Notes under the pieces: model-generated
Database searches by the model: none
What the model saw: only the letters and a program-made list of their open reading frames with translations
Told to the model about the DNA's origin: nothing
Program-made: the position numbers and the translations under genes
Shown: in pieces, positions 1-47,048 of the stretch
How positions within the stretch are numbered: the stretch's first letter is position 1
Layout of the letters: each line of letters begins with the position of its first letter
Source of the DNA: a virus
DNA length: 47,048 nucleotides
Strand: one strand, 5' to 3'
IMG/VR virus record: IMGVR_UViG_3300043473_000082
Location: 1 to 47,048 of that record

Positions 1-127
1 CGCCGCATCCGCGGCGGCCTTGTCGGCGGCCGCCTTGTCGGACGCGGCCTTGTCGGCGGCGGCCTTGTCGGCAGCAGCCTTGTCGGCGGCAGCCTTGTCG
101 GCGGCTGCCTGGTCCTTAGCCGCCTTG
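1..127. repeat. Terminal overlap identical to 46922-47048 (circular closure / assembly overlap)
   Basis: Read directly: the first and last 127 nt of the window are the same string. A minus-strand ORF stays in frame across the junction. Confidence 0.9.
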
Positions 128-1794: not shown

Positions 1795-3230
1795 CCGCTC
1801 TCCGATACCTGGTAATGCACCACCATGTTGGAGAGGATCTGCGGCCCGGGCTGGCGTTCCGCCACCGGCGTGCCGATCGGGTTGGAGCGCAGCCGCAGCG
1901 ACATGTGGGTGGAGTGGCCAACGATGGGGAAGCGGCCCTGCAGGAACGAGGAGCCGTCGAATAGGCCGACATAATCCTCGCTGTAGGGATCTTCGATGTT
2001 GAAGGCGCAGGACACCTCCCACGGCAGGCCGGTGCAGGTGGCGTCCAAGCCAGTAAAAGTCTTGAAGGTGGCGACGTTCTCGCCGGCGTGAAACGGAAAC
2101 ACCAGCTCGACATAGCAGTCGTCGTAGACCGGGCCGTCTTCCGAGATGCCGCCATAGGCGTAGACCATGTTCGCCGTGTCGCGCACCACCACGCGGTTAT
2201 CGTGGACGGCGGCGGCGGTGATGGTGAAGCCGGGATCGTACTCGGACCAGGCGGTGATCTTAGGCCCGGGGAACGCGGAGAGGATGTAGATGCGATCGGG
2301 GAAGATGATCCAGAACCGCCCGGTCACCGGCTGCAACAGCGCGATGATGCCGCTCATCCAGTCCTCGCCCATGTAGCGGAAGAGATCCTGGATGACAGGA
2401 TCGAGCGGTGAGCCGATGTCGGACACCGCGGCCGCCAGTGAAGAATTCCGCGCGCGCAGGCTGCGGATGCCGGAGGCTGAGACGTACATGACATCGCCGG
2501 AGCCGTATTGCAGTACGCTGCGCCAGGCCATGGTGCCGGCTTGCCGCAGGGTCTGGACGTATTGGTTCTTCTCCGGCAGCGGGTCCATCACCCAGAGCTG
2601 GGTGGCGGTCTTCGACATGATCGCCAGCTTGTCGTAGTAGACCTCCAACGCGATCGCGTCGGTCATGTCGGAATCGCCAAGCGAAAGATCGATAAACCCG
2701 GAGCCATCCTGCACCGTGTTCGGCGGCGGCTGATACCACATCGCCGGATTGCCGGTGGCCGAGAAGTGCAGCACGTTGCCGCCGACGGCGTACATCTTGG
2801 TCTTGTAGGTCTTGCAGTAAAAGCCGTTGGCGGTCGGCACGTTGATGCCGTCATAGTAGCGGCCGATATTGCCGGCGCTGTCCTTCCACAGGATCGCGAA
2901 CACCTTGTCATCGAAGATGTCGAAGTCGATGATCTCGTAGATCGTGGTGGTGGCCTGGCCGAGCACGCCGATCGACCACAGGCCGGCGGGCGGCTCGGTC
3001 TTGTAAGGACCATTTGGGCCGAACGTGTAGAGCTTCTGGTTGACCTCGACCAGGCCGCGGCTCTGCGGCGAGCATTCCCAGAACGGCACGAACGCCATGC
3101 GCTTTTCGATCTCGCCGCCGGGGGTGATGTGGCAGTTGATCATGCTGCGCAGCGTGCCGGCTGGCGCGGTCAGTTCGGAACGTCGGATGTCCAGCCCGGC
3201 TGCGAAGTCCGTGATCGTGAAGTATGGCAA
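1791..3230 (-). CDS. Putative tail tubular/nozzle protein (gp12-like position)
   Basis: 479 aa. TTG start preceded by GGAGG. Sits between the adaptor-like and gp13-like genes. No motif recognised; the call is positional. Confidence 0.55.
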   Translation of the reverse strand: MPYFTITDFAAGLDIRRSELTAPAGTLRSMINCHITPGGEIEKRMAFVPFWECSPQSRGLVEVNQKLYTFGPNGPYKTEPPAGLWSIGVLGQATTTIYEIIDFDIFDDKVFAILWKDSAGNIGRYYDGINVPTANGFYCKTYKTKMYAVGGNVLHFSATGNPAMWYQPPPNTVQDGSGFIDLSLGDSDMTDAIALEVYYDKLAIMSKTATQLWVMDPLPEKNQYVQTLRQAGTMAWRSVLQYGSGDVMYVSASGIRSLRARNSSLAAAVSDIGSPLDPVIQDLFRYMGEDWMSGIIALLQPVTGRFWIIFPDRIYILSAFPGPKITAWSEYDPGFTITAAAVHDNRVVVRDTANMVYAYGGISEDGPVYDDCYVELVFPFHAGENVATFKTFTGLDATCTGLPWEVSCAFNIEDPYSEDYVGLFDGSSFLQGRFPIVGHSTHMSLRLRSNPIGTPVAERQPGPQILSNMVVHYQVSESG

Positions 3231-3243
3231 ACGACTACCTCCA

Positions 3244-3987
3244 TCAGCCGGGGATGTAGTCGATGTATGGCACAGCGCGGCGGCTCTTGTCCGGGTCGTT
3301 GCCGCCGCGGTAGATGCCGCCCATGTTGTAGTTCGCGCGCTTGTCCGCGCCCTGGTCTGCCAGCAGACGCCGCAGGTAGTTCTGCGCCTTGGTGAGCTTC
3401 ATGGACGCCGCTTCGTTCTTCTGGGTCGCCATCACCTCGGCCGCCGCAAACAGCACGATCGCCTTGCTATCGATCACGCAGGTGTCGGTGTCGTTGACCA
3501 GGCGATTTAACGGCGCCATGCCTTCGAAGCGGATCAACATGTCATCGGTCGAGGGTGCCGGGATCAGTTCGAACTGGCCGTCGGGTTTGGTGAGCGGCGG
3601 ATTGACCGTGAGGTCCATGCCGACCACATTGCGCCAGCGCGCCGGCGTGCCGAGGCCGACGCCGGACGGCTTGATCATCCAGGGATCGATGCCGTAGGTC
3701 AGCCGCCGCCATTCCGAATTCATGCTGGTCGCGACCCACAGGTTCTGCACCTGTTCGAACAGCATGATCTCGGGGAAGTCGTAGGTGGTCTGGCCGGCGG
3801 TCAGCCCCATGTCCAGCCACAGCTTGAGGTGCTGCCAGTTATAGGCGTCCCACAGCTCGCGCTGCTGGCGCGCCAGGATGATGTCCAGCGAGCTTTGCGC
3901 TTGTGTGCCTTGCGCCGGGTTCATGCTGGTGCCGGTTTCGGCCCGCAGTTCCCGGCGTAGCTCCAGCAGTGTTACCCCTAGCGGCAT
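3244..3987 (-). CDS. Putative head-to-tail adaptor / tail tubular A-like protein
   Basis: 247 aa. The start overlaps the upstream stop (TGATG). The N-terminus LLELRRELRAETG...LDIILARQQRELWDAYNW resembles podovirus adaptor proteins. Mainly positional. Confidence 0.5.
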   Translation of the reverse strand: MPLGVTLLELRRELRAETGTSMNPAQGTQAQSSLDIILARQQRELWDAYNWQHLKLWLDMGLTAGQTTYDFPEIMLFEQVQNLWVATSMNSEWRRLTYGIDPWMIKPSGVGLGTPARWRNVVGMDLTVNPPLTKPDGQFELIPAPSTDDMLIRFEGMAPLNRLVNDTDTCVIDSKAIVLFAAAEVMATQKNEAASMKLTKAQNYLRRLLADQGADKRANYNMGGIYRGGNDPDKSRRAVPYIDYIPG

Positions 3988-4451
3988 CAGGCCTCCTTGG
4001 CGACTTCAGCCTTGCGTCCGCGCGGTTTGAAGATCGGCTCAAGTGCGGCCGCGGCCAGGTTCTTGGCCACCTCGTCCTCGCCGCCGTCATCTTCTTCGTC
4101 ATCGCCGTTGCCCGGCTTCGGCTCCTTGGTCGATACTTTCGTGCCGTCCGCGTAGCGCGGCAGGTCTTCCTCGCCGGTCATCATGAAGTCCATGCGGAAG
4201 GCCCGCCCCGGAAAGCACGTCTCGACAACCCGGGGGCCGTAGATGCTGGTCAGGCGATTCTTTTCGTCCGTCGGCCAGACCTCGCCGATGCCGCACGGCA
4301 TGATGTCCATGACGTTCTCTTCGCCGTGCAGCTGCATCAGCACCTGTATTTCAGGCCAGGTCACCGGGTTGAATTCGTTGTAGATCACGGTGTGGCAATT
4401 CTGCCCCGCGAGATTGATCTTGCAGGTGCAGTACTGGATCTTCTTGGTCAT
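3987..4451 (-). CDS. Hypothetical head-module protein with acidic C-terminal tail
   Basis: Internal ATG at 4451 (MTKKIQYCTCK...), ATGA-coupled to the upstream gene. The 37-aa N-terminal extension in the ORF track overlaps the upstream CDS and is Arg/Gly-rich. 154 aa with a DDEEDDGGEDE tract. Confidence 0.7.
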   Translation of the reverse strand: MTKKIQYCTCKINLAGQNCHTVIYNEFNPVTWPEIQVLMQLHGEENVMDIMPCGIGEVWPTDEKNRLTSIYGPRVVETCFPGRAFRMDFMMTGEEDLPRYADGTKVSTKEPKPGNGDDEEDDGGEDEVAKNLAAAALEPIFKPRGRKAEVAKEA

Positions 4452-4684
4452 TGACCGTTCCTCTTCGTTGTGGCCGCTTTGACCGCCCACATCGCCGCCT
4501 CTTCGTAGGCGGTCTGCGCCAGGCTGGCGAGCCGCGGCTCCAGCTCCTTCAGATCCTCGCACAGATCGATCAGGTCGGCGGTGTGCCGCTTGAGCTTATC
4601 AACCAAGTTGTCTTGGCTCGGGTTGAACGATTCGCGCACGCGGTGTGCGCCGATCGATCCCTGTGTCTGGTGTTGATCAGGCAT
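4448..4684 (-). CDS. Small helical protein next to the capsid gene; candidate Acb2/Tad1-like hairpin (nucleotide-sponge) protein
   Basis: ATG at 4684 preceded by AAGGAGACTCC. 78 aa: ...ESFNPSQDNLVDKLKRHTADLIDLCEDLKELEPRLASLAQTAYEEAAMWAVKAATTK. The pattern FNPS..V..LK...A.LID ... SLA.T..EEA.MWAVKA is recalled from that family. Confidence 0.7.
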   Translation of the reverse strand: MPDQHQTQGSIGAHRVRESFNPSQDNLVDKLKRHTADLIDLCEDLKELEPRLASLAQTAYEEAAMWAVKAATTKRNGQ

Positions 4685-4706
4685 GGAGTCTCCTTGCTGG
4701 AAAATC

Positions 4707-4736
4707 GGGGCCGCGAAAAAATTTTTTCGCGACCCC
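4707..4736 (-). terminator. Rho-independent terminator downstream of the major capsid gene
   Basis: On the minus strand: GGGGTCGCG-AAAAAATTTTTT-CGCGGCCCC followed by GATTTTCC. Starts 9 nt after the capsid stop. Confidence 0.75.
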
Positions 4737-4744
4737 AAAGAGGG

Positions 4745-5863
4745 TCAGGCAATATCCATGACCACGGCGCCGTTCAGGCGTCGGGCACAGAGCTGGCCTG
4801 TCGAGGTGATCGCGCGGTAGATCACATACTTGTCCGGCGCGCGATCGGGTGAGTGCTGGTGCCGCCACTCGTCCTGCATGGCGACCAGGAAGATGTCGCG
4901 GTTGTCCCACCAGTAGCAACGCTTCGATTTGCCGAGCGCGTCGAGCGAGGGGTCGTACTCGAAATCGGTTCCCATATAGGAGATCTTGCCGACCGAGATG
5001 TCCTTGCCTGATGCGAAGCCCTGCATCGAGTAGTTGCCGTTGGCGCGCAGCTCGGTTTCGAGAGCGCCTAACCAGTCACTGCCACAGAGAGCAGTATTGG
5101 GCTTGGCGCCGAACCGGGTGAGCTGGCGGTATTCCTTCTGCAGCAGCGTGATCAGCGCGCCGCCATTGGTGGTGTTGGACGTGATCGGCCCGCCACCCCA
5201 GGCAGCCAACGCCGGCGTGGTGCCGACGGCAGTGCCCATCGCCGCGGTGTAGGCGCGGTTTCTCCACCAGGTCCGCTGCGCGCGGTTGATGCCGGCCACG
5301 ATGCCCACGCTCGGATCGTCGGTGACCAGCGCCGCCATACCCGCGAGCGCCTTGGGATCGCCGGCGCCGTTGGTCCACAGCAGGTTGTTCATGCCGCGGG
5401 CGTACTGCTCGGAGACGTCCTGGAGCGCGTCTTCCAAGAGGCCGACCAGGACGGTGTCGTCACGGCCGGAGTGCTCGTTGGTGTCGTCCATGTTGCCGGA
5501 ATCGGTGACGCTGATGCCGTCGGACTTCAGTTCCGAATGCGTCAGCATGATGCCGATGTGGTGCTCCTTCCAGGGGAACACCGCCTGGGTGAGGTTGGCC
5601 GGGGTGTAATAGTTGACGGTGTCGGCAAGCTCGTAACCGACCAATTGATCGGCGGTGCCGGGCGCTGCGGTGTTACCGAAGTCGCCCTTCACGCTAACGA
5701 TAATATTTCCCTTGCCGCCGGGGAATGTCTTCTTCTTGCCCTCCATCGCGGCGAGCAAGGGTTTCTCTTGGATCGCTTCCTGGAACGCGGTGCCTTTGTT
5801 CAACCACCAATCGAGGGCGGCCGTCGTAATATGATTCAGCAGTGGAGCTGTATAGGTAGGCAT
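4745..5863 (-). CDS. Major capsid protein
   Basis: 372 aa. Lies directly after the scaffold-like gene and before a strong terminator. Composition and size are typical of HK97-fold capsid proteins. Positional. Confidence 0.75.
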   Translation of the reverse strand: MPTYTAPLLNHITTAALDWWLNKGTAFQEAIQEKPLLAAMEGKKKTFPGGKGNIIVSVKGDFGNTAAPGTADQLVGYELADTVNYYTPANLTQAVFPWKEHHIGIMLTHSELKSDGISVTDSGNMDDTNEHSGRDDTVLVGLLEDALQDVSEQYARGMNNLLWTNGAGDPKALAGMAALVTDDPSVGIVAGINRAQRTWWRNRAYTAAMGTAVGTTPALAAWGGGPITSNTTNGGALITLLQKEYRQLTRFGAKPNTALCGSDWLGALETELRANGNYSMQGFASGKDISVGKISYMGTDFEYDPSLDALGKSKRCYWWDNRDIFLVAMQDEWRHQHSPDRAPDKYVIYRAITSTGQLCARRLNGAVVMDIA

Positions 5864-5880
5864 GGTCGCCTCTCAAATGG

Positions 5881-6888
5881 TTAGAGGCGCGCTCCTTCCC
5901 GGGCGAACCTGACTGCTTCCAGCAGCGAGGTCGGCTCAGGCGAATTCGCGCCGGCGGTACGTCCGGTGCTGCTCGGGTTTCTGTATGTGGCGCGGCGCTG
6001 GGGTGCCCAGGCTTTGAACTGCTCGTTGACCCGGCGATACGCCTCCTGGGCGATCTGAATGCCGTGCTCGGGCGACCGGGGAGCGCCTTGTTCGCGCATC
6101 ACGGCCCACATCATCTGCTGAACAGCGTTTTTCTTCGCCGCGTAATCGGGGTCTTTGCGCGCAACCTGCGCTTCCCAGGCATTGACGGTGTTCGTCACCT
6201 GATTCGCTAGCACTTCTCGCTGTGCTGCCTGTTGCTGTACCGATGCCGACTGCTGGTGCTGCGCAAGCGCAGCCTGCTGGCGAACCACGTTGGTTTGCGC
6301 CATCGCCTTGTCCATGCGCTCGCGCGAGTACATGGCCGCGGCCTGGGTCGTCATGTGCCCCTGAGCGACCTGCGCTTGCAGGTCCGGGGGCAACGATATG
6401 CCAAGGTACTCTTCGCAAAGCTTCACGTAGGGCCGAACCCCCTCGTAAAACTTATGGAAATTCCCTTGCCGCATCGCGGCCATCAACTCCAGGCCCATCA
6501 GAAAATCGTCCTGCCCGATGTCATGGGTGCGGAGATACTGGGTGACCTGGTCGGCAGCTTGTGCGCTCGGCTCTAACGCCTTCAACCGCTGAACTTCGGC
6601 AGCCAACTTCATGCGCTGCTTGTTCAGCTTCGAGACTCGACGCTTCGCGCTTTGCGAAAGTTTAGCTAGCTCCTCGGGAGGCGCTTCTTCCGGCAAGTCG
6701 GAATCATCGTCCCGTGCGGCTTGGGCTGGCGAACCCCGGTCGCCGTCGTCATCACGATTGGCGTTGATACGCAGCTCGGGGACTGCGTCCTGCATCGCTT
6801 CGTGAAGACTCTGGCCGCCTGTACCTGGCGAAGGTACGTTTTCGACGGACGTGGCTATCGCGGTGGATAGCTTGTCGTCTTCTGCCAT
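5881..6888 (-). CDS. Scaffolding protein
   Basis: 335 aa, Ala/Gln/Glu-rich predicted helical protein between portal and capsid genes. Confidence 0.6.
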   Translation of the reverse strand: MAEDDKLSTAIATSVENVPSPGTGGQSLHEAMQDAVPELRINANRDDDGDRGSPAQAARDDDSDLPEEAPPEELAKLSQSAKRRVSKLNKQRMKLAAEVQRLKALEPSAQAADQVTQYLRTHDIGQDDFLMGLELMAAMRQGNFHKFYEGVRPYVKLCEEYLGISLPPDLQAQVAQGHMTTQAAAMYSRERMDKAMAQTNVVRQQAALAQHQQSASVQQQAAQREVLANQVTNTVNAWEAQVARKDPDYAAKKNAVQQMMWAVMREQGAPRSPEHGIQIAQEAYRRVNEQFKAWAPQRRATYRNPSSTGRTAGANSPEPTSLLEAVRFAREGARL

Positions 6889-36918: not shown

Positions 36919-37271
36919 CGATAGATTGGCAGATGGAAGCAGACCGCGCCAACCGACTTTATGGTGACGCTTCCCGTCGCATCGAACAACTGGAAGCGGC
37001 GCTCCATCAAATGAACGACGCATTTACTGCTGCTTATAATACTGCTGCTTCTGCGCGCATCGAACAACTGGAAGCGGCGCTACGGGATGGCAAGAATTGG
37101 TTACGGCGTAACGCAAACGCAGAGAAAGAACCGGCGGCACGTGCTGCATTCATTGAAGCCCACAACGCTTTTGCCGAAATCGCCCGCGCCGCCCTCGACC
37201 AGCTACCCGCCCCCGAAGAATCCAAAGCTGCCCATGCCGCCGCCGAGGCCCGCACCGCCACCCATCTCTAG
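36915..37271 (+). CDS. RIEQLEAAL-motif minigene E (two motif copies)
   Basis: 118 aa with RRIEQLEAAL, ARIEQLEAAL and ARAALDQLPAPEESK. Its 3' end overlaps the convergent 1145-aa gene by 69 nt. Confidence 0.6.
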   Translation: MTIDWQMEADRANRLYGDASRRIEQLEAALHQMNDAFTAAYNTAASARIEQLEAALRDGKNWLRRNANAEKEPAARAAFIEAHNAFAEIARAALDQLPAPEESKAAHAAAEARTATHL

Positions 37272-40200
37272 GCCGCCGCTGCTGCCGAAGTCGAAGCCGC
37301 CGCTCCCAAGGCCTGATCCGAAGCCGGAGCCACCGCCCCAGCCCAAGCCGCCCAACATGTCGAGCGAGATCGGCATGAAGCTGCCGGCGTTGAACGCCGC
37401 CGAGCCGCCGCCGGGGCCTTGCGCCATACTGTCGAGCAGCGGCGTCGAGAAGGTCGAGTTCTGGATCGGCGGCAGCATGCCGGCCATGGCGATCGAACCG
37501 CCCTGGCTGGCCCCCGGCATGAACGCTGCCGAGATGCCCGGCGCCGGGGCGTTCAGCCCGGCCGGTGCCAGCGACAGCCCGCCAGGACCACCCGCACCGG
37601 GCTGACCCGGCATCTGGATCGGCTCCGGCGGCAGCACTGGCTGCGCCTCGGGCGGTGGCGGGGCCGCCTGCGGCACCCGCTCCTGGTCCTTCATGGCGTT
37701 CTCGATCGCCTGTGCCATCTCAGGGGTGATGGTCGGCTGCTGGCCTTGCGGGTGCTGGCTGATCTCGCGCGCCTCGTTCTGGTGCAGCGCCTCGGCGGCG
37801 CGGCCGGCCTCCTCGATGTTGTCGTACTTGCCAAGGTGGTTGCCGGTTTCCTTGTAGCGTTGGATCGCCTCCCGGTCGGACATGATCCGCCCGCCCTCCT
37901 TCGGGACGGTAGGGATGTTGACCTCGCGGCCGTTCTCGCCGACGCCGATCGTGCGCACCGTGGAGATCTCGCCGTCCGGCCCCTGCACCGCGGGCTGGCT
38001 GGCCGGGTCCATGGTGGCGCCATCTAGTCCAGGAGGCGCCAGCGATGTCTTGCGCCGTGCACTGATGTCGGTGGCGCCTGACGTGCCGAAGTCGCTGCGC
38101 TTGCCAACCTTTGGAGGCCCTTCCTTGATGGCGTCCTGGAACTGCTTCTGGGTGACGCCGACCGCATCCAGCCCCTGCTGCAGCTGACCCTTGGCCATGC
38201 CGCCGTAGAGCGGGTGGTTGACCACCTCGCGCACGGTCATGTCCTTGACCATGCCAGGCACCTGGCTGCCGGCGCCCTTTTTCAGGCTCTCGGCGAAGTC
38301 GACGGTCTTCATGTCGAGATACCGATGCGCAGGGTTGCCAGGCGGCGGCGCGGTCGGCGCCATCGGAGGCGGCGCGGCCCTCGGTGGGGGCGGTGGCGGG
38401 GCCGCCGCCGCCGAAGGCAGGGGCGGCGGCGGCGCGGCCGCCCTCGCTGGCGGCGACGGGGGTGGTGCCGCCGCAGCGGGAGGGGGTGCAGGTGCGACCG
38501 CCGGAGCGGCCATCACCGGTGGCTTGGCGGCGTTGACCGCGGCCGTGTCGGCGTCGGGGTACAGCGTGGTGGCGGTGGTCGCTACCTCGTTCTCGGGGTC
38601 TTGCAGGCCGCCGATGCCGGCGGTCGGCACCGCCGCCGTACCCTTGTCGAACACGTCCGCAGCCGCGGTTGCGGGTTTTGCTGGTTCTGCGGACGCGGTC
38701 GCGACCGTGCCGGCGCCGCCCGAGCCAGGCACGCCTTTCTCGGCCAGGTAGCCACTGACGGCGTCTCGCATGGTGGCCGACTGGCTGCCGACATCCTTCG
38801 GGCTGGACGTAGGCGCCTGTGCCACCTGGGTCTGCGGATTCTTCAGCGCGGCTTCGGTCTTCTTGTGCCATTCCTGGATGTTGCGGACGTTGTCGGGGCC
38901 GTGCGCAGCCGGGTTCTGGTCCTTGCGGAAGAACTGCGACCCACCTTGCGAGGTGTAGGTGGGGGTGGAGTTGGTGCGCGACTTCGCCGCCGTGTCACCG
39001 GAGGCGTAGTCGGTGGCCAGGTTGGTGACGTTGCTGCCGGCGAACGCCTTGTCCTGCAGGGCGTACATCTCGGCCTTGAGCTGCGGGTTGTTGCGGATCT
39101 CGGCCAGCCGCGATTGGAACTTGGCTGGATCTTTGACCATGTAGTCCGCGTGGTAGGCCGGGTCCATCGCCTTGGCGAACGGCTCGCCGCGGGCGTTGAC
39201 CCGGTTCATCATGGCCTCGGCCACGCCCTGCCGGCCCGCCGGCGAGCCGTCCTCCGCGATCATGATCGCGGCCATGGTTTCCCGCACCGACGGGTTGGCG
39301 TCGGCGATGGCCTTGTACGGCGCACGCTGGTCCGCCAGGGCGCCGCCGCCTCCGGCGCTGGATGTCCCGCCGGGCAGCAGCTCCTGCGGCACCAGGCTGG
39401 TGGGCGAGGTGCTGGCCACCTTGGCCTCGCCAGGCGGCGTCCGCGATCGTGAGCTGAACTCGGTCGACCCCGACGTGCCTTTGCTTTCCGCCTGCGGGCC
39501 GACGCCCTTCGGTGGCTCGGCCTGGAGCTTGTTGGCCGGCGTGGTGTCTGATGGTGCCGGCCAGTTGGTCTTTGGGTCGGCCTGCGCGGGCAGCCCCTTG
39601 TCCCAGGCCGGCACCGGCGGGCCGGCCGGCTTTTGCTGCGACGGCCCGCTATACTTCGGATCGACCTGGACGTGGACCTTGTCGTTGGCGTGCGGGAATT
39701 CGATGCCGTATTGCTTGCCGTTCTTGTCGGCCCAGTCGCGGAATTCGCCAGACGGGATGTCGCCGGCACCGCCGTGCTGATGGCGTGACTGACCCGGCTT
39801 GGCGGCGAGGCCGCCGCCGTGCTCGAAACGATCGCGATAGATCCGCTGCACGTCCTCGCCGCGCGAGAACTCGCCGAACTTGGCCTGCTTGCCGGTTGCC
39901 GCCTCGTAGTCCTGGCCGGCCTGGCGCAGCCGTGCGGCCAGCTCCGGGTCGAGGTTCTTGTAGCCGCCCGATTCGGTCAGCGGCGAGTTGACGATTCTGC
40001 CATCAACGATCTTGCTGTTGTGGCCGCCGCGCTCGGCCAGGTACTGGATGTCGGACTGGTAGCCGCCGGTGACCACGCCCTTCTCGACGCCGGTCACAGC
40101 ACCGCCGGGCGCCTTCTCATGCATGTAGGCCACGGCCGCCGGGCTGCCGGCCGGTAGCTTGGAGGCATCGAAGCCCGGCTTCAGGCCGGGGATGGCCTCG

Positions 40201-40640
40201 GCCACCGCCGGTGCCCCAGGCTCACCCAGCTTCGGTCGCGCGTAGTTCTGGCCGCGGACGCTGTCGCTGCGGCCGCCTCCGGTCTTCTCGTCCGACTTGG
40301 TTATCGTATGGCCCTGGGCCACCTTGGCCTTGTCGAACAGACCCTTCAGCAGCCCGCCGAGGTCGGGACTGCCGCTGTCGTACTTGGCCTCCGGGGCGGC
40401 GCCCGCCCGTGCACCAGTGCCGGGCGCCACCTGCAACGGCGCGGTCGGGGTCTGGACCACGCCCTTGGGTGCCCGCCCTGGGGTGCCCAGCAGTTGCTGG
40501 AGCTGGGACAGCGCGTCAGGCGAGGAGACGATCGCCCGGATCGCCGCCTGGGTGTCCTCGCCGAGCAGCGGCGTCTTGCCCTCCAGCATCTTCTGCCGGG
40601 AGCGTTCGCGCTCGATCGCCATGTCGTCCATGTACGCCAT
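37203..40640 (-). CDS. Large internal virion/ejection protein (gp16-like) with M15 peptidase-like and SleB-like cell-wall hydrolase regions, Pro-rich linker and Gly-rich tail
   Basis: 1145 aa. SRHQHGGAGD...DKVHVQVD (VanY/M15-type H-x6-D...H) at about aa 190-330. MAAIMIAEDGSPAGRQGVAEAMMNRV (SleB/Hydrolase_2-like) at about aa 440-575. The C-terminus ends ...GGGMGSFGFFGGG. Confidence 0.8.
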   Translation of the reverse strand: MAYMDDMAIERERSRQKMLEGKTPLLGEDTQAAIRAIVSSPDALSQLQQLLGTPGRAPKGVVQTPTAPLQVAPGTGARAGAAPEAKYDSGSPDLGGLLKGLFDKAKVAQGHTITKSDEKTGGGRSDSVRGQNYARPKLGEPGAPAVAEAIPGLKPGFDASKLPAGSPAAVAYMHEKAPGGAVTGVEKGVVTGGYQSDIQYLAERGGHNSKIVDGRIVNSPLTESGGYKNLDPELAARLRQAGQDYEAATGKQAKFGEFSRGEDVQRIYRDRFEHGGGLAAKPGQSRHQHGGAGDIPSGEFRDWADKNGKQYGIEFPHANDKVHVQVDPKYSGPSQQKPAGPPVPAWDKGLPAQADPKTNWPAPSDTTPANKLQAEPPKGVGPQAESKGTSGSTEFSSRSRTPPGEAKVASTSPTSLVPQELLPGGTSSAGGGGALADQRAPYKAIADANPSVRETMAAIMIAEDGSPAGRQGVAEAMMNRVNARGEPFAKAMDPAYHADYMVKDPAKFQSRLAEIRNNPQLKAEMYALQDKAFAGSNVTNLATDYASGDTAAKSRTNSTPTYTSQGGSQFFRKDQNPAAHGPDNVRNIQEWHKKTEAALKNPQTQVAQAPTSSPKDVGSQSATMRDAVSGYLAEKGVPGSGGAGTVATASAEPAKPATAAADVFDKGTAAVPTAGIGGLQDPENEVATTATTLYPDADTAAVNAAKPPVMAAPAVAPAPPPAAAAPPPSPPARAAAPPPPLPSAAAAPPPPPPRAAPPPMAPTAPPPGNPAHRYLDMKTVDFAESLKKGAGSQVPGMVKDMTVREVVNHPLYGGMAKGQLQQGLDAVGVTQKQFQDAIKEGPPKVGKRSDFGTSGATDISARRKTSLAPPGLDGATMDPASQPAVQGPDGEISTVRTIGVGENGREVNIPTVPKEGGRIMSDREAIQRYKETGNHLGKYDNIEEAGRAAEALHQNEAREISQHPQGQQPTITPEMAQAIENAMKDQERVPQAAPPPPEAQPVLPPEPIQMPGQPGAGGPGGLSLAPAGLNAPAPGISAAFMPGASQGGSIAMAGMLPPIQNSTFSTPLLDSMAQGPGGGSAAFNAGSFMPISLDMLGGLGWGGGSGFGSGLGSGGFDFGSSGGLEMGGGAGLGGGMGSFGFFGGG

Positions 40641-42763
40641 CAGGGCACCCTTGGACCGGGTTGCAATTGCTGCTGTTCGCGCTGCTGCGCCGCCGCGTTC
40701 AGCGCACTGACCAGCTCGGCCATGCTCGTCACCGGCGGCGCGGCGCCACCACCTAGCGCGTTGATGGCGTGGTCGCCTTGCAGGTAGTTCGCGCGCAGCG
40801 CGCGGATGGCCGGCATTGCGCCAAGCCCGGCGATGCGGCCGGCCCAGCCAGCGCCGGGGATGCCGGTGGCGGTGCCGAGCTGGCCCAGTGTCTCGCTGCC
40901 GGCCATCATGCGGCCGACGCTTTCACCGACCCCGCCGACGGTGCGGCCCAGCCCGGTCTGGCTGGTCGGGTAGTCCAGCGCCCGCGCTAGCGTGGCGACA
41001 TCCATGACACCGGGCAGCTGCGGGCCGGCGATGGTGGCGCGGGCATCCGGGTGCATGCGCTCGATTTCATTGGCCAGATTGGCCGGGCCGCGGGCGCCTT
41101 GGGCGGGGTGGTTGATGGTGTCGTTGCCGAGGTAGCGTAAGAGATCACCCATGATGCTGTTGACCTGGGGGTGCTGCGTGGCCTCCAAGGTGCCGAGCCG
41201 CACCGGGTTCTGCTCGCCGCCGGTCAAGTAGTTGAAAGCCTGCTTCGGCTCCTTGTCGAAGATCTGCTGCAAGGCCTGGTAGTCGCCGCCCTCGCGCTCG
41301 ACCGCGTGGGTGCGGCCCTGCACGTTCTGGAAATCCTGCCGCGGCACGCCGCGGTTCTCGGCGGTGACGCGCATGGCCTCGGTCGCCGGAGGATACAGCG
41401 ATGCCGTCGGCGGCATCCGGCCGCCCTGCGGGGTGTCGAGCGAGCGGCCGAGGTCGGTACGCCAGCCGCGGAACGGGCCGTAGGGCACCGTCTCGGAGGC
41501 GCCGGGCCGGGAGCCTGGCGCGCCAGCTGGCCCCGGCAAGCCCGGCGGCGGGCCTGGTTGCCCCGGCGGTGGCCGGCCGCCGCCTTGCAGGATCGGCATC
41601 CCGGCGGCGTCCCGGTTAACCAGCGGTGCGAGCTGTTCGGTGAGCCGGAAGTCCATTGCCTCCCGCTTCGGCACGCTTAAGCCGGCCTGCGGGTCGGTCA
41701 TCATGTTGTAGCCCTGCTCGCGCATCGGCGTTATCGCCACCGGCGTGTTGGCGCCGACGCGGTCCTGCAGCCGCATCTGGGCGCCCTCGCTGCCGGCGCG
41801 CAGCGCCTCGGCGCTCTCGCGCGCCGCGGTGATGGCGTTCTCGCCGATCGTGCCGGGGGTCGGGTTACCATGGGTGGAGCCGCGCTCCGTTGCCAGCCGG
41901 TCCAGCGCGGCGCCAATGTCCGCGCGGGCGCCGCGCCGGGCGCGATCGATGATTCCCATGCTGCCGACCTGGTTGCCGAGCGTGCGCTCCAGGTTCTGGA
42001 TGTCGCGGTTGCCGAGCATGCCGGCGGTCGGCCGCACGTCCTGGGCGGCGGCGGCCGCGGCGATCCCCGCGGCATTGGGCGCGGCTTGCGCGGCCAACCG
42101 GTTGTGGCTGTAGCGTTGTGCGGCGCCCTGCGCCACCGTCGGCGCGGCGCCGCCGATGATGGAGCCGAGCAGCGCGCCGGTTTCGCGATCGCCCAGCTTA
42201 TCGCCGATATAGCCCCCGACCTCGCCGCCGTAATGCGAGGCCACGGTGGGTGCCACGATCTGCGAGGTGGTGGCGCCCGCCACGCGGCCCGCGGTGTTCA
42301 GCGCCGTTGTGCCGGCCGCGGCGGCATTGGCCACGCCACCCGCGCCGCCGCCGATCAGGGCGCTGCCGGCGCCCTCCAGGAGCTGGCGCAGGGTGCTGGG
42401 GTCTTGCACCACGCCACCCCCGCCGGCCTCGATCATCTGGGGACCGAGCGGGGTTATCTGAGGCGGTTTCTCGACGCCGGCAATACGGCCGCCGACACGG
42501 GACAGCATGTTGGTGATGCCGATACCGAGGTCAGGCAGGCCGGTCATCGCGCCGGAGAACATCCGGTTCATGGTGGCGTCGAAGCCACCGGGGTTGGCGG
42601 CGCGCCGGGCGCGCAGTTCGGCCTCGGCGTCGGGCAGCCCCCCGCTGGTTTCGGCATCGCGCAGCTCGCGGTAGCGCGCCGCCTTCTGCACGAACTCCGG
42701 CGTGCCCTTGGCCGTCTCGGCGTTCTGCACGATCCAGTTGTCGAGGTCATCGATCTCAGCCAT
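40640..42763 (-). CDS. Putative internal virion/ejection protein (gp15-like position)
   Basis: 707 aa, translationally coupled (TGATG) to the 1145-aa gene. Gly/Ala-rich. Confidence 0.65.
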   Translation of the reverse strand: MAEIDDLDNWIVQNAETAKGTPEFVQKAARYRELRDAETSGGLPDAEAELRARRAANPGGFDATMNRMFSGAMTGLPDLGIGITNMLSRVGGRIAGVEKPPQITPLGPQMIEAGGGGVVQDPSTLRQLLEGAGSALIGGGAGGVANAAAAGTTALNTAGRVAGATTSQIVAPTVASHYGGEVGGYIGDKLGDRETGALLGSIIGGAAPTVAQGAAQRYSHNRLAAQAAPNAAGIAAAAAAQDVRPTAGMLGNRDIQNLERTLGNQVGSMGIIDRARRGARADIGAALDRLATERGSTHGNPTPGTIGENAITAARESAEALRAGSEGAQMRLQDRVGANTPVAITPMREQGYNMMTDPQAGLSVPKREAMDFRLTEQLAPLVNRDAAGMPILQGGGRPPPGQPGPPPGLPGPAGAPGSRPGASETVPYGPFRGWRTDLGRSLDTPQGGRMPPTASLYPPATEAMRVTAENRGVPRQDFQNVQGRTHAVEREGGDYQALQQIFDKEPKQAFNYLTGGEQNPVRLGTLEATQHPQVNSIMGDLLRYLGNDTINHPAQGARGPANLANEIERMHPDARATIAGPQLPGVMDVATLARALDYPTSQTGLGRTVGGVGESVGRMMAGSETLGQLGTATGIPGAGWAGRIAGLGAMPAIRALRANYLQGDHAINALGGGAAPPVTSMAELVSALNAAAQQREQQQLQPGPRVP

Positions 42764-42766
42764 GGG

Positions 42767-44401
42767 CTACCGTCCTAGCACTGCATCGGCGCCGCGCCGC
42801 GGCGGCGGCGCCGCCGTCGTCGCCGCGCCCCCGGATCGTAGGATCATATCCCGGTCGTACACCAACGGCTCTACCAGAGGGACGAGTACTTCTTCCGGTG
42901 CCAGCCCGGCTTTCGGCGCTACCTGCTCGCGGTAGAACTTGTCGGTGATGTCCCTGGATGACTTGATCTCGTCCATCCGGTTCTTGAGGGTGTCGATCAG
43001 GTTGAGGCGAACCTGCGCATCCATGGTGCCGCCGCCCTGGATCAGCCGGTTGAAGGTGCCGACGATGCTTTGCGGGATGGTGCCCGAGTTCATCACCAGC
43101 TTGCCCTCGCTGTCGCGCACCACCGAGCCTGGGTCCATCAGCTTGGCGAAGGCGTACATGATGTTGATGTCGCCTTGGTTGGTCGGCGCCTGCGCCGACT
43201 TGATCGCCGAATTGTACAGCGGCGCGGTTATGATCCAATCCGATACGGCCTGCGTGTTCTGATACTCCTTGCGCAATTCGGCGGCCTGGGCCGGGCCTTT
43301 GTAGAGCACTTCGTCGGCGTTGGGGTCGACATAGGGCGAGCGCGGCGCGTCAGGCGGCGCGAGATGCCGGCCCTTGGCGACGTCGTCGGCTATCTGGTGC
43401 AGCTGCTTCAGATTGTCGGGTATCGGCTCGGCGCGCACGTTCTTGGTGATCTTGCGTCCGGCTTCGTCAGTGTCGATGCGGCTGCGCGGATAGGCGATTT
43501 CGAACAGCCGCGCCGCCTCCATCGCCTGCACCGGCGTCCTTAAGCCGCCGTTGGTAATGCGCTCGTCATCGAGCTTGGCCAGCGCCACGCGCGCCTTGTT
43601 CTTGTCGTCCATCGGACTGACTGCCGATGCGTCGGCCACGCCGCCGAGCAGCCAGTTGTCGCCCTCCGGCTTGTCGGCCTGGGAGATACGCCGTCCGGTG
43701 GGTTGCCTGGTGACCGGGTCGATCTCGACCCAGTTCTTGATCGTGACCTTGGTGTCGTCGCGCTGGTTCAGCGAGATCGGATTGGCCAACACATAGCTCG
43801 GGCCTGGCGATACCCGCGAGGCCACGGCCTGTCCGATCGGCTCGTTCTTGTCGTTGACCGGCACCCACTGCTTGATCGGATTCTTGCTATCGTCGGCGCC
43901 GATATGGGTCGGGAATTTGCCGGTGGAATAGAACTCCAGCTCGGCGCGCTTGCGAGCGTCTTCAGGCACGCCGGTGGCGCCGACGGTGGCGTAACTGAGC
44001 GATGCCGGTCCCTGCCCCGGCTTGGCCAGCGTATCGGCTTTGCCGGTGGCGACCAGGTAAGCGCGCCTTGCTTCGGCTGCGGCCTGCTCGCGCGGGTCGA
44101 TGAAGGTGGCCTTGGGCAGGCCGGCGGTAACGGCGGGATCGTTGATGTCGCCGACGAACGGCCCGACCGTTGTGGTCGGCGCCGCCTGCGCCGCCGGGAC
44201 TGCGGCGTCGAGCAGACCGGAGGCGGCGTTCCTGAGCTGATAGTCTTCCTCTTCCCGCGCCCGCTTGATGCGCTGGTCCTTGATGACCTCGGCGGCGTGG
44301 ATGTTGGACAGCGCCTTGCCTGGCGCGGATTCGAGGCCGCTCACCACGTTGCCGAGAATGCTGCCCCAGCCTGCCGAGCCGTCAACGAACTGCGAACCCA
44401 T
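42767..44401 (-). CDS. Putative internal virion protein
   Basis: 544 aa in the late operon between the gp14-like and gp15-like positions. Confidence 0.65.
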   Translation of the reverse strand: MGSQFVDGSAGWGSILGNVVSGLESAPGKALSNIHAAEVIKDQRIKRAREEEDYQLRNAASGLLDAAVPAAQAAPTTTVGPFVGDINDPAVTAGLPKATFIDPREQAAAEARRAYLVATGKADTLAKPGQGPASLSYATVGATGVPEDARKRAELEFYSTGKFPTHIGADDSKNPIKQWVPVNDKNEPIGQAVASRVSPGPSYVLANPISLNQRDDTKVTIKNWVEIDPVTRQPTGRRISQADKPEGDNWLLGGVADASAVSPMDDKNKARVALAKLDDERITNGGLRTPVQAMEAARLFEIAYPRSRIDTDEAGRKITKNVRAEPIPDNLKQLHQIADDVAKGRHLAPPDAPRSPYVDPNADEVLYKGPAQAAELRKEYQNTQAVSDWIITAPLYNSAIKSAQAPTNQGDINIMYAFAKLMDPGSVVRDSEGKLVMNSGTIPQSIVGTFNRLIQGGGTMDAQVRLNLIDTLKNRMDEIKSSRDITDKFYREQVAPKAGLAPEEVLVPLVEPLVYDRDMILRSGGAATTAAPPPRRGADAVLGR

Positions 44402-44412
44402 AAGCTCATCCC

Positions 44413-45105
44413 CTATACCGACATGCCGGACGCCATCGCATTGCCAAGCCCGCCGCCGGCGATCTGCGCGCCGGCTGCAGCGCCTGCGCCGAGCGACTGA
44501 CCACCATGCTGCACGATCTTGATCGGCTCGACCGCCTTGGCCACGTTATACGCTGCCAGCTCACCGGCGCGCTCGTTTCCTGCCAGACGAATATCCTGAC
44601 CGGATGCGTTTAGGATCGTGTTAGCGCGGTTTGTAAGTCCGAACTGGCTGCCGCCATAGGACTGCACCGCGGCCAGCGCGGAGATCCGCTTGCGCGCTTC
44701 GATCGCGGCTTGTTGTATTTGCGCCTGGATGTTGGTCTTGGCGTAGTCGCCGGCGCCCTCCTGGCCGCTCAACATCTTGCCGGCCAGCGTGTTGGGGTCG
44801 CCCTTCTCCAGGTTGGCGACCTCCTCCGGGGTCAGCTCCTTATCCAGCCGCGCCTCTTCGTTCTCCTGCGCCGCCTTCTGCTTCTCCGGGGTCAGTTCAC
44901 TGAGCGAGGCCGAGCGCGCGGCTTCCGCGTTACGCCGCAGCGCCTCGTCGCGCTTCTGGAAGTCGGCCGCCTGCCGGCGCTGGTAGTCGACCCAGCTGTC
45001 GTTGGCCGCCTGCTGCTGGTTGGCCATGTCCTCCTGCGCCGCATAGTTGGCGTAGGCCATGCCGACCGAGAGCGCCAAGCCAATCATGCTGATCGGGTCA
45101 CACAT
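44413..45105 (-). CDS. Putative internal virion protein with N-terminal hydrophobic segment (gp14-like position)
   Basis: 230 aa. MCDPISMIGLALSVGMAYANYAA, then a coiled-coil, then a Gly/Ala-rich C-terminus. Confidence 0.65.
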   Translation of the reverse strand: MCDPISMIGLALSVGMAYANYAAQEDMANQQQAANDSWVDYQRRQAADFQKRDEALRRNAEAARSASLSELTPEKQKAAQENEEARLDKELTPEEVANLEKGDPNTLAGKMLSGQEGAGDYAKTNIQAQIQQAAIEARKRISALAAVQSYGGSQFGLTNRANTILNASGQDIRLAGNERAGELAAYNVAKAVEPIKIVQHGGQSLGAGAAAGAQIAGGGLGNAMASGMSV

Positions 45106-45108
45106 CGG

Positions 45109-45750
45109 CTATCCTGTGTAGCTGACCGAGCCGCCGCCAGTTGGCGACCGCGGGTTGAGGTAACTGTTAGCCTGGTTGGCACCGTATACCGGTGCCACCG
45201 CCGAGCCGAGGCCGATGACGATCGGCTTGAACATGTCGCCGAGCGCACCCGTGTTGGGCTGCGTCAGCTGCGCATTGGCGGCGCTGTTAGCCGCCGTGTT
45301 GGCCGCCACGGTTGGATCTTCGGTTTGGTAGAGCTGGTTGTAGGCTTGCTGCTGCTGGCTCGCGATGCTCTGGCGCAGCGCGGATGTATCGGTATCCGCC
45401 TTGGCGCGCAGGCCGGCCTCGTTGACCGCCATCTGGTTCTCCATCTGGCCCTGGGCGAAGCCGGCCGATGAGGAGCGCAACAGACCAGCGCGCGCCAGGT
45501 CAGCCGTCATGCCGGTCTTGGCGGTGTCGTACTGGCTCTCCAGTTGCGGCAGCGCGTAGTTCAGCGAGGCGTCTTTGTATTTGTTGAAGAACTCATCGCC
45601 GAAATTGTCCGGCCCGAACAGCGTATCGATCGCGCTTTTCCCTTGATCAAGCCGGGCCTGGCGCAGGTTCTCTTTCTGCTCGGCCTTGCGGGCCTGCTCC
45701 ATCTGGAACTGGACCATCTGGTTATTGCTTGGTCCCGATTTGCCGCCCAT
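45109..45750 (-). CDS. Gln/Ala-rich virion-module protein with MGGKSG N-terminus
   Basis: 213 aa. Shares only the N-terminal MGGK(S/G)G with the four upstream paralogs. SD GAAGGAGG. Confidence 0.7.
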   Translation of the reverse strand: MGGKSGPSNNQMVQFQMEQARKAEQKENLRQARLDQGKSAIDTLFGPDNFGDEFFNKYKDASLNYALPQLESQYDTAKTGMTADLARAGLLRSSSAGFAQGQMENQMAVNEAGLRAKADTDTSALRQSIASQQQQAYNQLYQTEDPTVAANTAANSAANAQLTQPNTGALGDMFKPIVIGLGSAVAPVYGANQANSYLNPRSPTGGGSVSYTG

Positions 45751-45762
45751 CGCGACCTCCTT

Positions 45763-46101
45763 CTATGCTTGTGGACCAGGCGGCGGGGTTAGCATGCGCG
45801 GCTTCGCGGCGGCCTTCTTTTCCTGCTCGTCCCAATACACCGGCGGTTTGATGATGGCGCTGGCCATCGCATCGCCGGTGTCGGTTTTGATGTTGGTTGG
45901 CGGCGCGGTTGATTTCTCCAGCGCGGCCTTGGCGGTGGCGTCGGCGGCCGCCTTCTTGACGTTGATGGTCTGCTGGTAGTCCGACATGTCGATCGGCTTC
46001 TCCTTGGCAAGCGTGATCTTCGCTTCCTCGGGCGTGCCGTAGCCTGATGTGTCCTCCGGCTGCTGATAGTAGTTGCCGCCGCCGCCGCCTTTGCCGCCCA
46101 T
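45763..46101 (-). CDS. Gly-start (MGGKGGGGG) virion-module protein, paralog D (divergent tail IIKPPVYW)
   Basis: 112 aa. SD GAGGAGG. Confidence 0.7.
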   Translation of the reverse strand: MGGKGGGGGNYYQQPEDTSGYGTPEEAKITLAKEKPIDMSDYQQTINVKKAAADATAKAALEKSTAPPTNIKTDTGDAMASAIIKPPVYWDEQEKKAAAKPRMLTPPPGPQA

Positions 46102-46112
46102 GTCGACCTCCT

Positions 46113-46691
46113 CTAGGTCTGTGTCGTTCTGAGCGCACCGCGACCGCGACCGCCAAGGGAATCGCTGGTCTGGGCGTCGAGGCCACCGACCCAGTATTTC
46201 GGCGGCTTGAGCACAGCGCCGCCGAGGAGGTCGCCGGTTTCTGTCGCCGGCGCCGGGGTGCCGAGCGGCGTGCCCGTCTCGATCGGCGTGCCGATCGGGG
46301 CCACGGGTGCCGCCCCCGTCTTCGTAACGGAGGGCGTGTCCGGCGTAGCCAGGTTGGTTGTCGCTTTCGGCGCCGCCGCGACCGCGGCGGCATCTGCCGC
46401 CGCCTTGTCGGCGGCGGCCTTGTCAGCCACAACCTTGTCCGCTGCGGCCTTGTCGGCCGCGGCCTTGTCGGACGCCGCCTTATCTGCGGCGGCCTTGTCG
46501 GCCGCCGCCTTGTCCGCTGCCGAGGTATCGGGCCACATCTCCGCGGCGCTGTTGGCGAGTATCCTGCTGCTGGAATCCCGCACCACGCCGGTGCTCCGGT
46601 CAATGAAATACCCGGGATGCGACGTCGTATCGTAGACGCGATTGATCGCCGCCGTTGGATCTTCGCCGCCACCGCCACCTTTGCCGCCCAT
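46113..46691 (-). CDS. Gly-start (MGGKGGGGG) virion-module protein, paralog C
   Basis: 192 aa with HPGYFIDRSTGVV (compare paralog B, RPGYAIDRVTGDV), an (AAADK)n tract, and GDLLGGAVLKPPKYWVGGLD...RTTQT. Confidence 0.8.
   Translation of the reverse strand: MGGKGGGGGEDPTAAINRVYDTTSHPGYFIDRSTGVVRDSSSRILANSAAEMWPDTSAADKAAADKAAADKAASDKAAADKAAADKVVADKAAADKAAADAAAVAAAPKATTNLATPDTPSVTKTGAAPVAPIGTPIETGTPLGTPAPATETGDLLGGAVLKPPKYWVGGLDAQTSDSLGGRGRGALRTTQT
46381..46523 (-). repeat. 15-nt-period tandem repeat encoding (AAADK)n in paralog C
   Basis: GCCTTGTCGGCGGCN-type units repeated about 9 times, imperfectly. Confidence 0.8.
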
Positions 46692-46702
46692 GGTCGTATC
46701 CT

Positions 46703-47048
46703 TTACAGCGTTGTCCGTAACGATGATTTGCGCGTCGACGGTGACTTGAAGCTATCCGCGCCGCCGACCCAGTATTTCGGCGGATCGAGCACCGCGCCGC
46801 CGAGCGCGTCACCGGCGCCGGCGCCGCCGAGGGCCGGGTTGCCGGCGGCGGTGGGCTGGGTGATGGCGCCGCCGGCCGTGATCGGCGCGCCGATCGGCGT
46901 GTGCGCCAGCTTGTCGGCCGCCGCCGCATCCGCGGCGGCCTTGTCGGCGGCCGCCTTGTCGGACGCGGCCTTGTCGGCGGCGGCCTTGTCGGCAGCAGCC
47001 TTGTCGGCGGCAGCCTTGTCGGCGGCTGCCTGGTCCTTAGCCGCCTTG
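46703..47048 (-). CDS. C-terminal part of wrap-around paralog B (see 1-315; 46922-47048 duplicates 1-127)
   Basis: Manual translation ...AADKLAHTPIGAPITAGGAITQPTAAGNPALGGAGAGDALGGAVLDPPKYWVGGADSFKSPSTRKSSLRTTL, stop TAA at 46705-46703. In frame with base 1 after removing the overlap. Confidence 0.8.
   Translation of the reverse strand, partial: KAAKDQAAADKAAADKAAADKAAADKAASDKAAADKAAADAAAADKLAHTPIGAPITAGGAITQPTAAGNPALGGAGAGDALGGAVLDPPKYWVGGADSFKSPSTRKSSLRTTL

Follow-up and report, generated by a model that had tools for sequence, protein, structure and literature searches.

Small proteins with constant ends in a putative podophage ejection module, and an N-terminal residue that tracks acetyltransferase-fold genes

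In phage T4, the internal proteins IPI-III are encoded by tandem, fast-diversifying genes, carry a conserved N-terminal signal of about 10 residues, and are injected with the DNA. Among the enzymes that act on protein N-termini, NatD acts on histone H4 (SGRGKGGKG) and N-myristoyltransferase on viral entry proteins that start with MG…, such as picornavirus VP4. In phage T7, six copies of gp7.3 are anchored at the nozzle/adaptor junction by their last 15 residues, the remainder of each being disordered in the channel, and residues 2-15 of gp6.7 wrap the portal barrel (PMC11784390). The internal virion protein A (IVP-A) family, to which T7 gp13 belongs, comprises acetyltransferase-like, non-virion assembly factors (Hardies et al., PMC4819975). 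In phage P22, a leader of 20 residues precedes the KGGKGG motif of gp7, and the mature N-terminus, read by Edman degradation, is unblocked (PMC8402733). Here we describe five successive minus-strand genes, A to E, in the IMG/VR virus record IMGVR_UViG_3300043473_000082 (the window, meaning the whole analysed stretch of 47,048 nucleotides); all start with MGGK, and each has a Shine-Dalgarno sequence upstream. The kind of protein is known, namely small disordered ejected podophage proteins and tandem internal proteins with a common N-terminal signal, as in T4. As far as the databases and literature searched show, the novelty lies in the family of A–D, in its two-ended constant design, in its tandem diversification, and in a covariation between residue 2 and acetyltransferase genes that reaches T7 and ε15. 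The genes concerned are the following.

825-1334, minus strand: GNAT acetyltransferase, 169 aa, phrog_1249 / PF00583; its stop codon overlaps the start codon of A (TGATG)
325-825, minus strand: family member A, 166 aa, MGGKGGGGGQ…GDVLGGSILNPPKYWVGGIDSYKKGPSTKSSSLTTTQT; N-terminal tag, three-helix variable module, Pro/Ala spacer and PPKYWVGG…TTTQT tail
1-315, minus strand: family member B, 5' part; start codon at 313-315; holds an (AAADK)n 15-nt tandem repeat at 11-147
46703-46921, minus strand: family member B, 3' part; stop codon at 46703-46705; continues into 1-315 once a 127-nt copy is removed
46922-47048, no strand: assembly artefact, an exact copy of window positions 1-127
46113-46691, minus strand: family member C, 192 aa, MGGKGGGGGE…GDLLGGAVLKPPKYWVGGLDAQ…GALRTTQT; PPKYWVGG…RTTQT tail
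45763-46101, minus strand: family member D, 112 aa, MGGKGGGGGN…IIKPPVYW…; degenerate tail (KPPVYW)
45109-45750, minus strand: E, 213 aa, MGGKSGPSNNQ…; conserved ejection-module protein

Residue 2 of E follows the presence of the GNAT gene throughout the relatives. For this comparison, 98 distinct E homologues were collected from 184 loci, and both acetyltransferase-fold genes of the module (the GNAT and a gp13-type gene, below) were detected by iterated profile search. With the GNAT present, E starts with M-G/S/A in 66/66 cases (53 G, 9 S, 4 A) and in none with MC; with the GNAT absent, all 32 of 32 start with MC and none with M-G/S/A. Two apparent exceptions, L132 and L179, were resolved, each having a GNAT gene that overlaps the start of E. 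The small genes behave alike: among those of GNAT-positive loci (~91), 80 start with MG and 10 with MP, and at GNAT-less loci the MC start is found in 13/13. One of the latter, MCFSSKKYKALQ…, resembles T7 gp6.7 (MCFSPKIKTPK…), and another, MCTPVTVG…LPPGKYWGNN…, retains the motif of the family. On a neighbour-joining tree of E built with the first 15 residues removed, the GNAT and Cys2 of E each require two changes by parsimony, located at shared tips. Comparison of these sequences thus gives real comparative support to a functional coupling between the GNAT and residue 2 of E and of the small proteins. At the position of the small array, the GNAT-less locus L104 carries a Gly/Pro-rich protein of 382 aa (3840-4988; MCPTNGSTQ…ENISLGDILGMALSAPGTRR).

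A parallel rule connects the second acetyltransferase-fold gene of the module with the protein encoded behind E:

1273-1788, minus strand: gp13-type gene (T7 internal virion protein A family, acetyltransferase fold), phrog_308
44413-45105, minus strand: F, 230 aa, MCDPISMIGLAL…; hydrophobic N-terminus and Gly-rich C-terminus

Where the gp13-type gene is present, F starts with (M)C[DEN]P in all 78 of the 78 loci with a known start. The gene is missing in L093/L094, L098/L102, L121 and L164, and there F starts with MV, MG, MA or MD, with Cys2 in 0/5 known starts; the F of L164, for instance, reads MDPLTLALL, compared with MCDPLT in its relatives. By parsimony on the neighbour-joining E tree, the gp13-type gene and Cys2 of F change four times each, likewise at identical tips, and none of the loci examined is without both the GNAT and the gp13-type gene. 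At L171 and L132, F apparently starts at a non-ATG codon (…T-I-CDP…), and in L171 an HNH-endonuclease-like open reading frame (5532-6038) is inserted between E and F.

The rule extends to isolated phages, in which the internal virion protein next to a phrog_308 gene starts with MC in 13/14 cases: T7 (MCWAAA), ε15 (MCSPAI), P-SSP7 ((V)CLGAA), Ralstonia P-PSG-11 (MCGPAA), Xanthomonas Tenjo (MCEPIT), Vibrio 1.021.A (MCEPTT), Pseudomonas AF (MCFPAA), Roseobacter CRP-361 (MCDPVT), P-SCSP1u (MCNPVA), Nostoc Nsp-JY18 (MCTVGL), Pelagibacter HTVC201P (MCDIQS), RHEph01 (MCVDPI) and ICP3 (MK-MCDPVS), with Pseudomonas MPK9 (MGAALA) as the sole exception. phiKMV (MAFWLP) and SP6 (MAIGTA) have no phrog_308 gene, and VpV262 (MSKAVR) has a phrog_1249 GNAT instead. 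P22 gp14 was considered as a counter-example to the rule and rejected, as it belongs to phrog_651. A search of IMG/VR for relatives of T7 gp14 returned close relatives only, and the literature searched proposes no substrate for the T7 gp13-type protein.

Both acetyltransferase assignments are grounded in profiles. The gene at 1273-1788 matches phrog_308 at E=3.8e-10 over positions 2-150 of 151 and sits between the tail hub gene and the IVP-B-like gene, and the same family is matched by T7 gp13, ε15 gp13 and P-SSP7_032. The GNAT reaches 32.9 bits against PF00583 (cut-off 20.7) and E=7.6e-10 against phrog_1249, which places it in the GNAT superfamily; its AlphaFold2 (AF2) model has a canonical GNAT fold with a predicted local distance difference test (pLDDT) score of 89.9, and its invariant polar residues are H88, D101 and E102. 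Foldseek returns 653 GNAT matches in the Protein Data Bank (PDB) at E≤0.001, which are generic and include NatD, RimI and Naa60, and by score protein-acting GNATs cannot be told from small-molecule ones, so that no substrate class is assigned. F is T7 gp14-like by position, size, MC start and hydrophobic N-terminus, a positional resemblance only; it has no match to the T7 gp14 profile PF24072 at E≤10. These assignments bear out the earlier placement of the genes in an internal-virion/ejection module.

Compared with the described systems, A–D recall T7 gp7.3 and gp6.7 in being small (~90-190 aa), mostly disordered and, presumably in the case of A–D, tail-channel- or core-associated proteins. 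T7 gp7.3 has an MGKK start and a basic Ser/Gly-rich tail (…GGKKSLSVARSSGGGINI) of which the last 15 residues lie in the nozzle, and it is the best analogue for the C-terminal peptide of the family, in composition and logic only. T7 gp6.7, with its MC start and its N-terminus on the portal barrel, invites comparison with the small genes of GNAT-less loci. In contrast to the array, the T7 genes lie upstream of the portal gene, outside the internal virion protein operon, and T7 also lacks a tandem array, the PPKYWVGG motif and a second GNAT. A–D give no match at E≤0.01 to Pfam, including the T7 gp7.3 family PF11653 (VirionAssem_T7), which gp7.3 itself hits at 2.8e-61; neither E nor the Cys-type E of L104 matches the T7 gp6.7 family PF17570 even at E≤10.

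The resemblance to P22 gp7, an ejection protein, concerns E, which is of similar size (213 aa for E, 229 aa for gp7). Behind Met1, E reads GGKSGPSN, comparable to the mature GGKGG N-terminus of gp7 (KGGKGGADKSAK). The latter (L107, 2370-3059) is near-identical to the start of the E homologue of L093 (4992-5633), SGGGKGGADNSAKK. Beyond the N-terminus, hhalign aligns E and gp7 with a probability of 0.1%, and E has no match to PF25688 at E≤10. In P22 the motif is exposed, unblocked, through cleavage of the leader by the host protease OpdA, unlike in E, which has no leader.

The T4 proteins are the counterpart for a conserved N-terminal signal on unrelated tandem genes, as M1-G8 is invariant in 15 aligned members of the present family and the modules behind it fall into ~55 clusters. 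The differences are that T4 is a myovirus, that its internal proteins have neither a conserved C-terminal peptide nor a linked acetyltransferase gene, and that their signal is cut by the prohead protease, whereas here no leader stands ahead of the motif, which starts at residue 2. A cleavage site, one of the roles raised by the sequence-only reading, is therefore unlikely, and a protease-cleaved leader was rejected because it would have no residues to lose. The analysis identified no protease gene in the window.

NatD and N-myristoyltransferase offer the likeness of a GNAT-fold enzyme whose putative substrates expose G, S or A followed by Gly and Lys after Met removal, and VP4 is a small internal capsid protein released at entry. 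Unlike the phage enzyme, a single domain of 169 aa, N-myristoyltransferase is a duplicated GNAT, and its consensus (M-G-x-x-x-S/T) fits neither A–D, which have Gly6, nor E, in which the Ser is at position 5. Nor does the enzyme resemble the RTX TAAT/HlyC acyltransferases: it matches Acetyltransf_1/7/10/CG only, and the Gly-Lys context is present, with the Lys missing in some GNAT-linked E.

The array itself was largely described correctly from the letters alone. All five MGGK starts are present, with MGGKGGGGG in A–D and MGGKSG in E; A–C share C-termini of the form GDxLGGxxLxPPKYWVGG…, ending in TTQT or TTL, and D has the degenerate IIKPPVYW; the GNAT stop and the A start overlap by one base (TGATG); and the (R/H)PGY.IDR.TG.V motif is common to B and C, recurring in the further homologues P0009, P0011 and P0012. 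The N-module type that B and C have in common reads HPGYFIDRSTGVV in C. The wrap-around gene B had also been recognised, and the gene is real, but its coordinates needed correction: the literal join of 46703-47048 and 1-315 is 661 nt long and breaks the frame. The window opens and closes with identical stretches of 127 nt, the overlap of a circular assembly, and the circle measures 46,921 bp; once the copy is removed, 46703-46921 plus 1-315 gives an in-frame gene of 534 nt encoding 177 aa, which starts with MGGKGGGGGGG (MGGKGGGGGGGF…) and ends with GDALGGAVLDPPKYWVGGADSFKSPSTRKSSLRTTL. Since the contig ends meet within the tandem array of 15-nt (AAADK) units in B, the number of units in this gene is uncertain and possibly mis-assembled. 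Such 15-nt repeats encoding (AAADK)n lie in B and C at window positions 11-147, 46396-46514 (the repeat of C) and 46910-47035, and the encoded spacer is probably a salt-bridged, charged single helix.

Searches of A–D, E and F against Pfam, PHROGs, NCBIfam and PDB sequences gave only low-complexity noise, such as a weak, spurious match of the (AAADK) repeats to the histone-like HC2 and a kelch-like 20-mer, and tblastn with A found zero matches in 50,697 phage records; hence the impression that the family was undescribed holds for the four libraries. The homologues of A are P0002-P0012. When 1.84 billion cluster representatives were searched exhaustively by profile, 61 matches emerged, about 50 of them true members of 115-200 aa, among which 39 start with MGGK and nearly all end with …TTQT. 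The array was found again in about 100 related loci from IMG/VR, ENA, JGI and Logan contigs, and the family as a whole is present in over 100 contigs of metagenomic podophages as well as in prophages of Bradyrhizobium. The codons of the MGGKGGGGG copies differ synonymously, which indicates that selection acts on the peptide, and this, together with the recurrence in ~100 loci and the members found by profile, argues that the pattern of A–E is not due to chance.

The position of the family is constant, after the gp13-type and GNAT genes and before the conserved E and F, and so is the layout of the locus, in which the GNAT is followed by one to four variable small genes, a D-type gene and then E. 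Copy number varies between relatives: array loci hold 2-5 small genes, the D-type included, and 34 GNAT-positive lineages hold 0, which makes a range of 0-5. In the array-less relatives, E stands directly behind the GNAT, its start overlapping or adjoining the GNAT stop codon, and begins with MGGK, MGKK, MSKK, MSGGGK or MAGGGK; E is the likely source of the MGGK tag. The middles, proposed to be unrelated and of low complexity, proved so across the relatives. With low-complexity spacers masked, the modules behind the Gly run form ~55 unrelated clusters among 138 distinct members, the largest being the D-type (MGGKGGGGGNYYQQPxDTSGYxTPEEAK; 27/138 proteins), which invariably ends the run of small genes ahead of E. 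Two kinds of spacer occur, Pro/Ala-rich and (AAADK)n. Some relatives have tails 96-97% identical to that of A and unrelated heads, so the genes act as cassettes with constant ends, and the peptide ends are kept across relatives of only 35-55% identity. In the AF2 model of A, helices at residues 19-33, 39-44 and 64-74 make up a small three-helix module within residues 19-74; residues 1-10 and 119-166 have pLDDT <50, and both conserved ends are thus predicted to be disordered in isolation.

A prophage of Bradyrhizobium japonicum (L108; CP126010.1, 4,993,800-5,012,441) contains a gp13-type gene, a GNAT, two MGGK small genes, E and F; the stop and start codons of these genes all overlap, and a type I restriction-modification locus adjoins it. 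It points to Bradyrhizobium-like hosts and to a temperate lifestyle of the relatives, the host being deduced from the NCBI names of Bradyrhizobium E and GNAT homologues and from this one prophage. An E profile run against one genome per species gave no confirmed match.

Outside the array, the module is bordered by the following genes.

37203-44401, minus strand: three large internal/ejection proteins of 544, 707 and 1145 aa, downstream of F, assigned by synteny
1791-3230, minus strand: tail hub/nozzle, 479 aa, upstream of the module
3244-3987, minus strand: adaptor, 247 aa, upstream of the module

Synteny links the three large proteins to a putative injection protein in RHph_N65 and to large proteins of relatives that bear Amidase_2. 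Judged by the capsid, Microcystis phage Mae-Yong1326-1 and Rhizobium phage RHph_N65 are the closest isolated phages; their gene order is gp13-type, GNAT (RHph_N65 only), E, F and injection protein, with A–D missing, and the E of RHph_N65 starts with MGKKGGG. In Mae-Yong1326-1, the homologues of hub and adaptor bear the annotations packaged DNA stabilization protein and tail tubular protein, and the L006 homologue matches PF24175 (SU10_adaptor). The surroundings had been called T7-like, which suits the ejection module but not the adaptor and the hub, which resemble SU10 and P22 types. Elsewhere in the window, the segment 20001-22000 has a G+C content of 0.55, compared with ~0.63 elsewhere, at the border of oppositely oriented gene blocks, and may be a regulatory or origin region; within 38001-42000, the two largest internal-protein genes have a G+C content of 0.70-0.72 and a strongly negative AT skew relative to the rest.

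We tentatively favour, at somewhat below even confidence, a reading in which A–D are a lineage-specific tandem expansion in the ejection module of a podophage of Bradyrhizobium-like hosts, with the GNAT recognising, and probably acylating, the tag and the C-terminal peptide probably docking in the virion. Each protein has four parts: an M-GGK-G5 tag in common with E, a short variable module, a stiff spacer, and a C-terminal peptide of the form GDxLGGxxLxPPxYWVGG…basic/Ser…SLxTTQT. Methionine aminopeptidase removes Met1 when position 2 is G, S, A, C, P or V, and almost every residue found at position 2 is of this Met-excision type, so the constrained feature is the exposed N-terminal residue. 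Met1 would thus be lost, residue 2 being small, and the GNAT encoded upstream would recognise the exposed Gly-Gly-Lys N-terminus and acylate it, most likely by acetylation of the alpha-amine and possibly at Lys4; Lys4 was ruled out as a universal acceptor, as some GNAT-linked E proteins are without an early Lys. Loading into the portal/core complex, or a function exerted after ejection, would depend on this cap. The C-terminal peptide would probably dock in the tail hub or portal channel, by analogy with the T7 gp7.3 loop in the nozzle, and the variable modules may be exchangeable cargo that reaches the host envelope early. In GNAT-less relatives, the proteins start with Cys and would need the gp13-type protein in place of the GNAT. 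Residue 2 changes its identity with acetyltransferase-fold genes in several proteins per genome, which suggests that the products of these genes recognise the N-termini in question, and acylation is preferred because the GNAT fold is intact, with invariant H88, D101 and E102, and because an N-terminal Cys can, as we infer, accept an acyl group from a thioester. Of the roles raised by the sequence-only reading, the link to the GNAT is the one that gains evidence, the covariation being without exception in E, and modification of the shared start by the enzyme is a candidate mechanism.

Several observations weigh against this reading, chief among them the unblocked N-terminus of mature P22 gp7, the members with an MP start and the low number of independent GNAT switches. 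Motif A of the GNAT is partly degenerate (RTDLGR), and the Foldseek neighbours of the enzyme are small-molecule acetyltransferases as often as protein acetyltransferases. The GNAT/Cys switch amounts to ~2 changes on the neighbour-joining tree, which is few independent events for E, and the IVP-B proteins of phiKMV and SP6 have Ala2 without any GNAT. Lys is missing from some GNAT-linked E N-termini (MGGGGGGGDN, MSGSAPSN). The 10 members that start with MP, and would expose an N-terminal Pro, a poor acetyl acceptor, keep the tail; they form a single subclade (L039, L041, L061 and L065, for example L041 3792-4160 and 4168-4635) with MPW…, MPYR… and MPTQ… starts, and retain the Pro/Ala spacer and a tail of the form …LLPPPSIW…GSISTTK. 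The KGGKG N-terminus of mature P22 gp7 is unblocked, so GGKGG can work uncapped. Lastly, the virion location of A–D and E derives from synteny, and the likeness of the tail to gp7.3 is compositional, with no PF11653 match.

A close rival, somewhat less likely than the favoured reading, dispenses with chemistry: the tag would serve in docking or targeting to the portal barrel, to the core or to a dedicated chaperone, and the GNAT-fold protein would, like T7 gp13, be a non-catalytic assembly factor that binds this N-terminus and delivers its clients to the procapsid. Specific binding would account for the covariation as well as catalysis does, the tag is common to E and to the small proteins, and the partly degenerate motif A fits a non-catalytic role; a targeting or docking role of the tag is equally compatible with the data. 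T7 gp13 is needed for morphogenesis yet stays outside the virion (PMC4819975), the residues of T7 gp6.7 that bind the portal barrel are its N-terminal 2-15 (PMC11784390), and P22 gp7 loads into procapsids via residues 21-154 with its KGGKG N-terminus unblocked (PMC8402733). However, the invariant acidic and His residues and the intact GNAT core suggest a working active site, and the alternation of Cys with Gly/Ser/Ala, all Met-excision substrates that leave a reactive or accessible N-terminus, in front of variable following residues fits a chemical need at residue 2 better.

An extension of the acylation reading, which we regard as doubtful, holds that the ejection modules of podophages bring with them dedicated enzymes for N-terminal acylation, phrog_308 proteins acting on Cys-start proteins (T7 gp14 and gp6.7 included) and phrog_1249 GNATs on Gly/Ser/Ala-start proteins (the MGGK family included). 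In the furthest version of this idea the transferred group is a fatty acyl; if that were true, the small ejected proteins would be lipid-anchored membrane-penetration factors, the phage counterpart of the myristoylated VP4 of picornaviruses.

It is improbable that the Gly run is simply a flexible leader, an unstructured front that helps the unfolded protein to thread its way along the tail channel or across a host pore, with the GNAT unrelated to it. Colicins have Gly-rich N-terminal translocation domains, ejection proteins pass a narrow channel, residues 1-10 are predicted to be disordered, and Cys-type relatives have Gly runs as well (e.g. MCFGGGGGDGG). Such a leader leaves unexplained the strict identity of residue 2, its covariation with two acetyltransferase-fold genes and the near-invariant Lys4 of the small proteins, so that the flexible Gly leader, another of the roles first suggested, fails as a whole account. 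Most improbable of all is that the conserved ends serve at the nucleic-acid level, as signals of translation initiation and coupling or as borders of recombination cassettes without peptide function: the stop codon of each small gene does lie inside the Shine-Dalgarno of the next (TGAGGA, TAGAGGAGG) and the proteins are mosaic, but the synonymous codon differences, the retention of the peptide in distant relatives, a conserved C-terminus of ~35 residues, far beyond what a Shine-Dalgarno overlap needs, and a covariation that is a protein-level property all speak against it.

Small ejected podophage proteins have only now been placed in virion structures (T7 gp6.7 and gp7.3, in 2024). The switch of residue 2 with acetyltransferase-fold genes, in several proteins per genome, amounts to a natural experiment that spans uncultured soil phages as well as T7, ε15, P-SSP7, phiKMV and SP6, and it turns the role of gp13, the acetyltransferase-fold IVP-A of T7, into a testable question, to be addressed through the N-terminal state of gp14 and gp6.7. 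The design of constant ends around a variable middle suggests, in addition, a route for loading foreign peptides into podophage virions.

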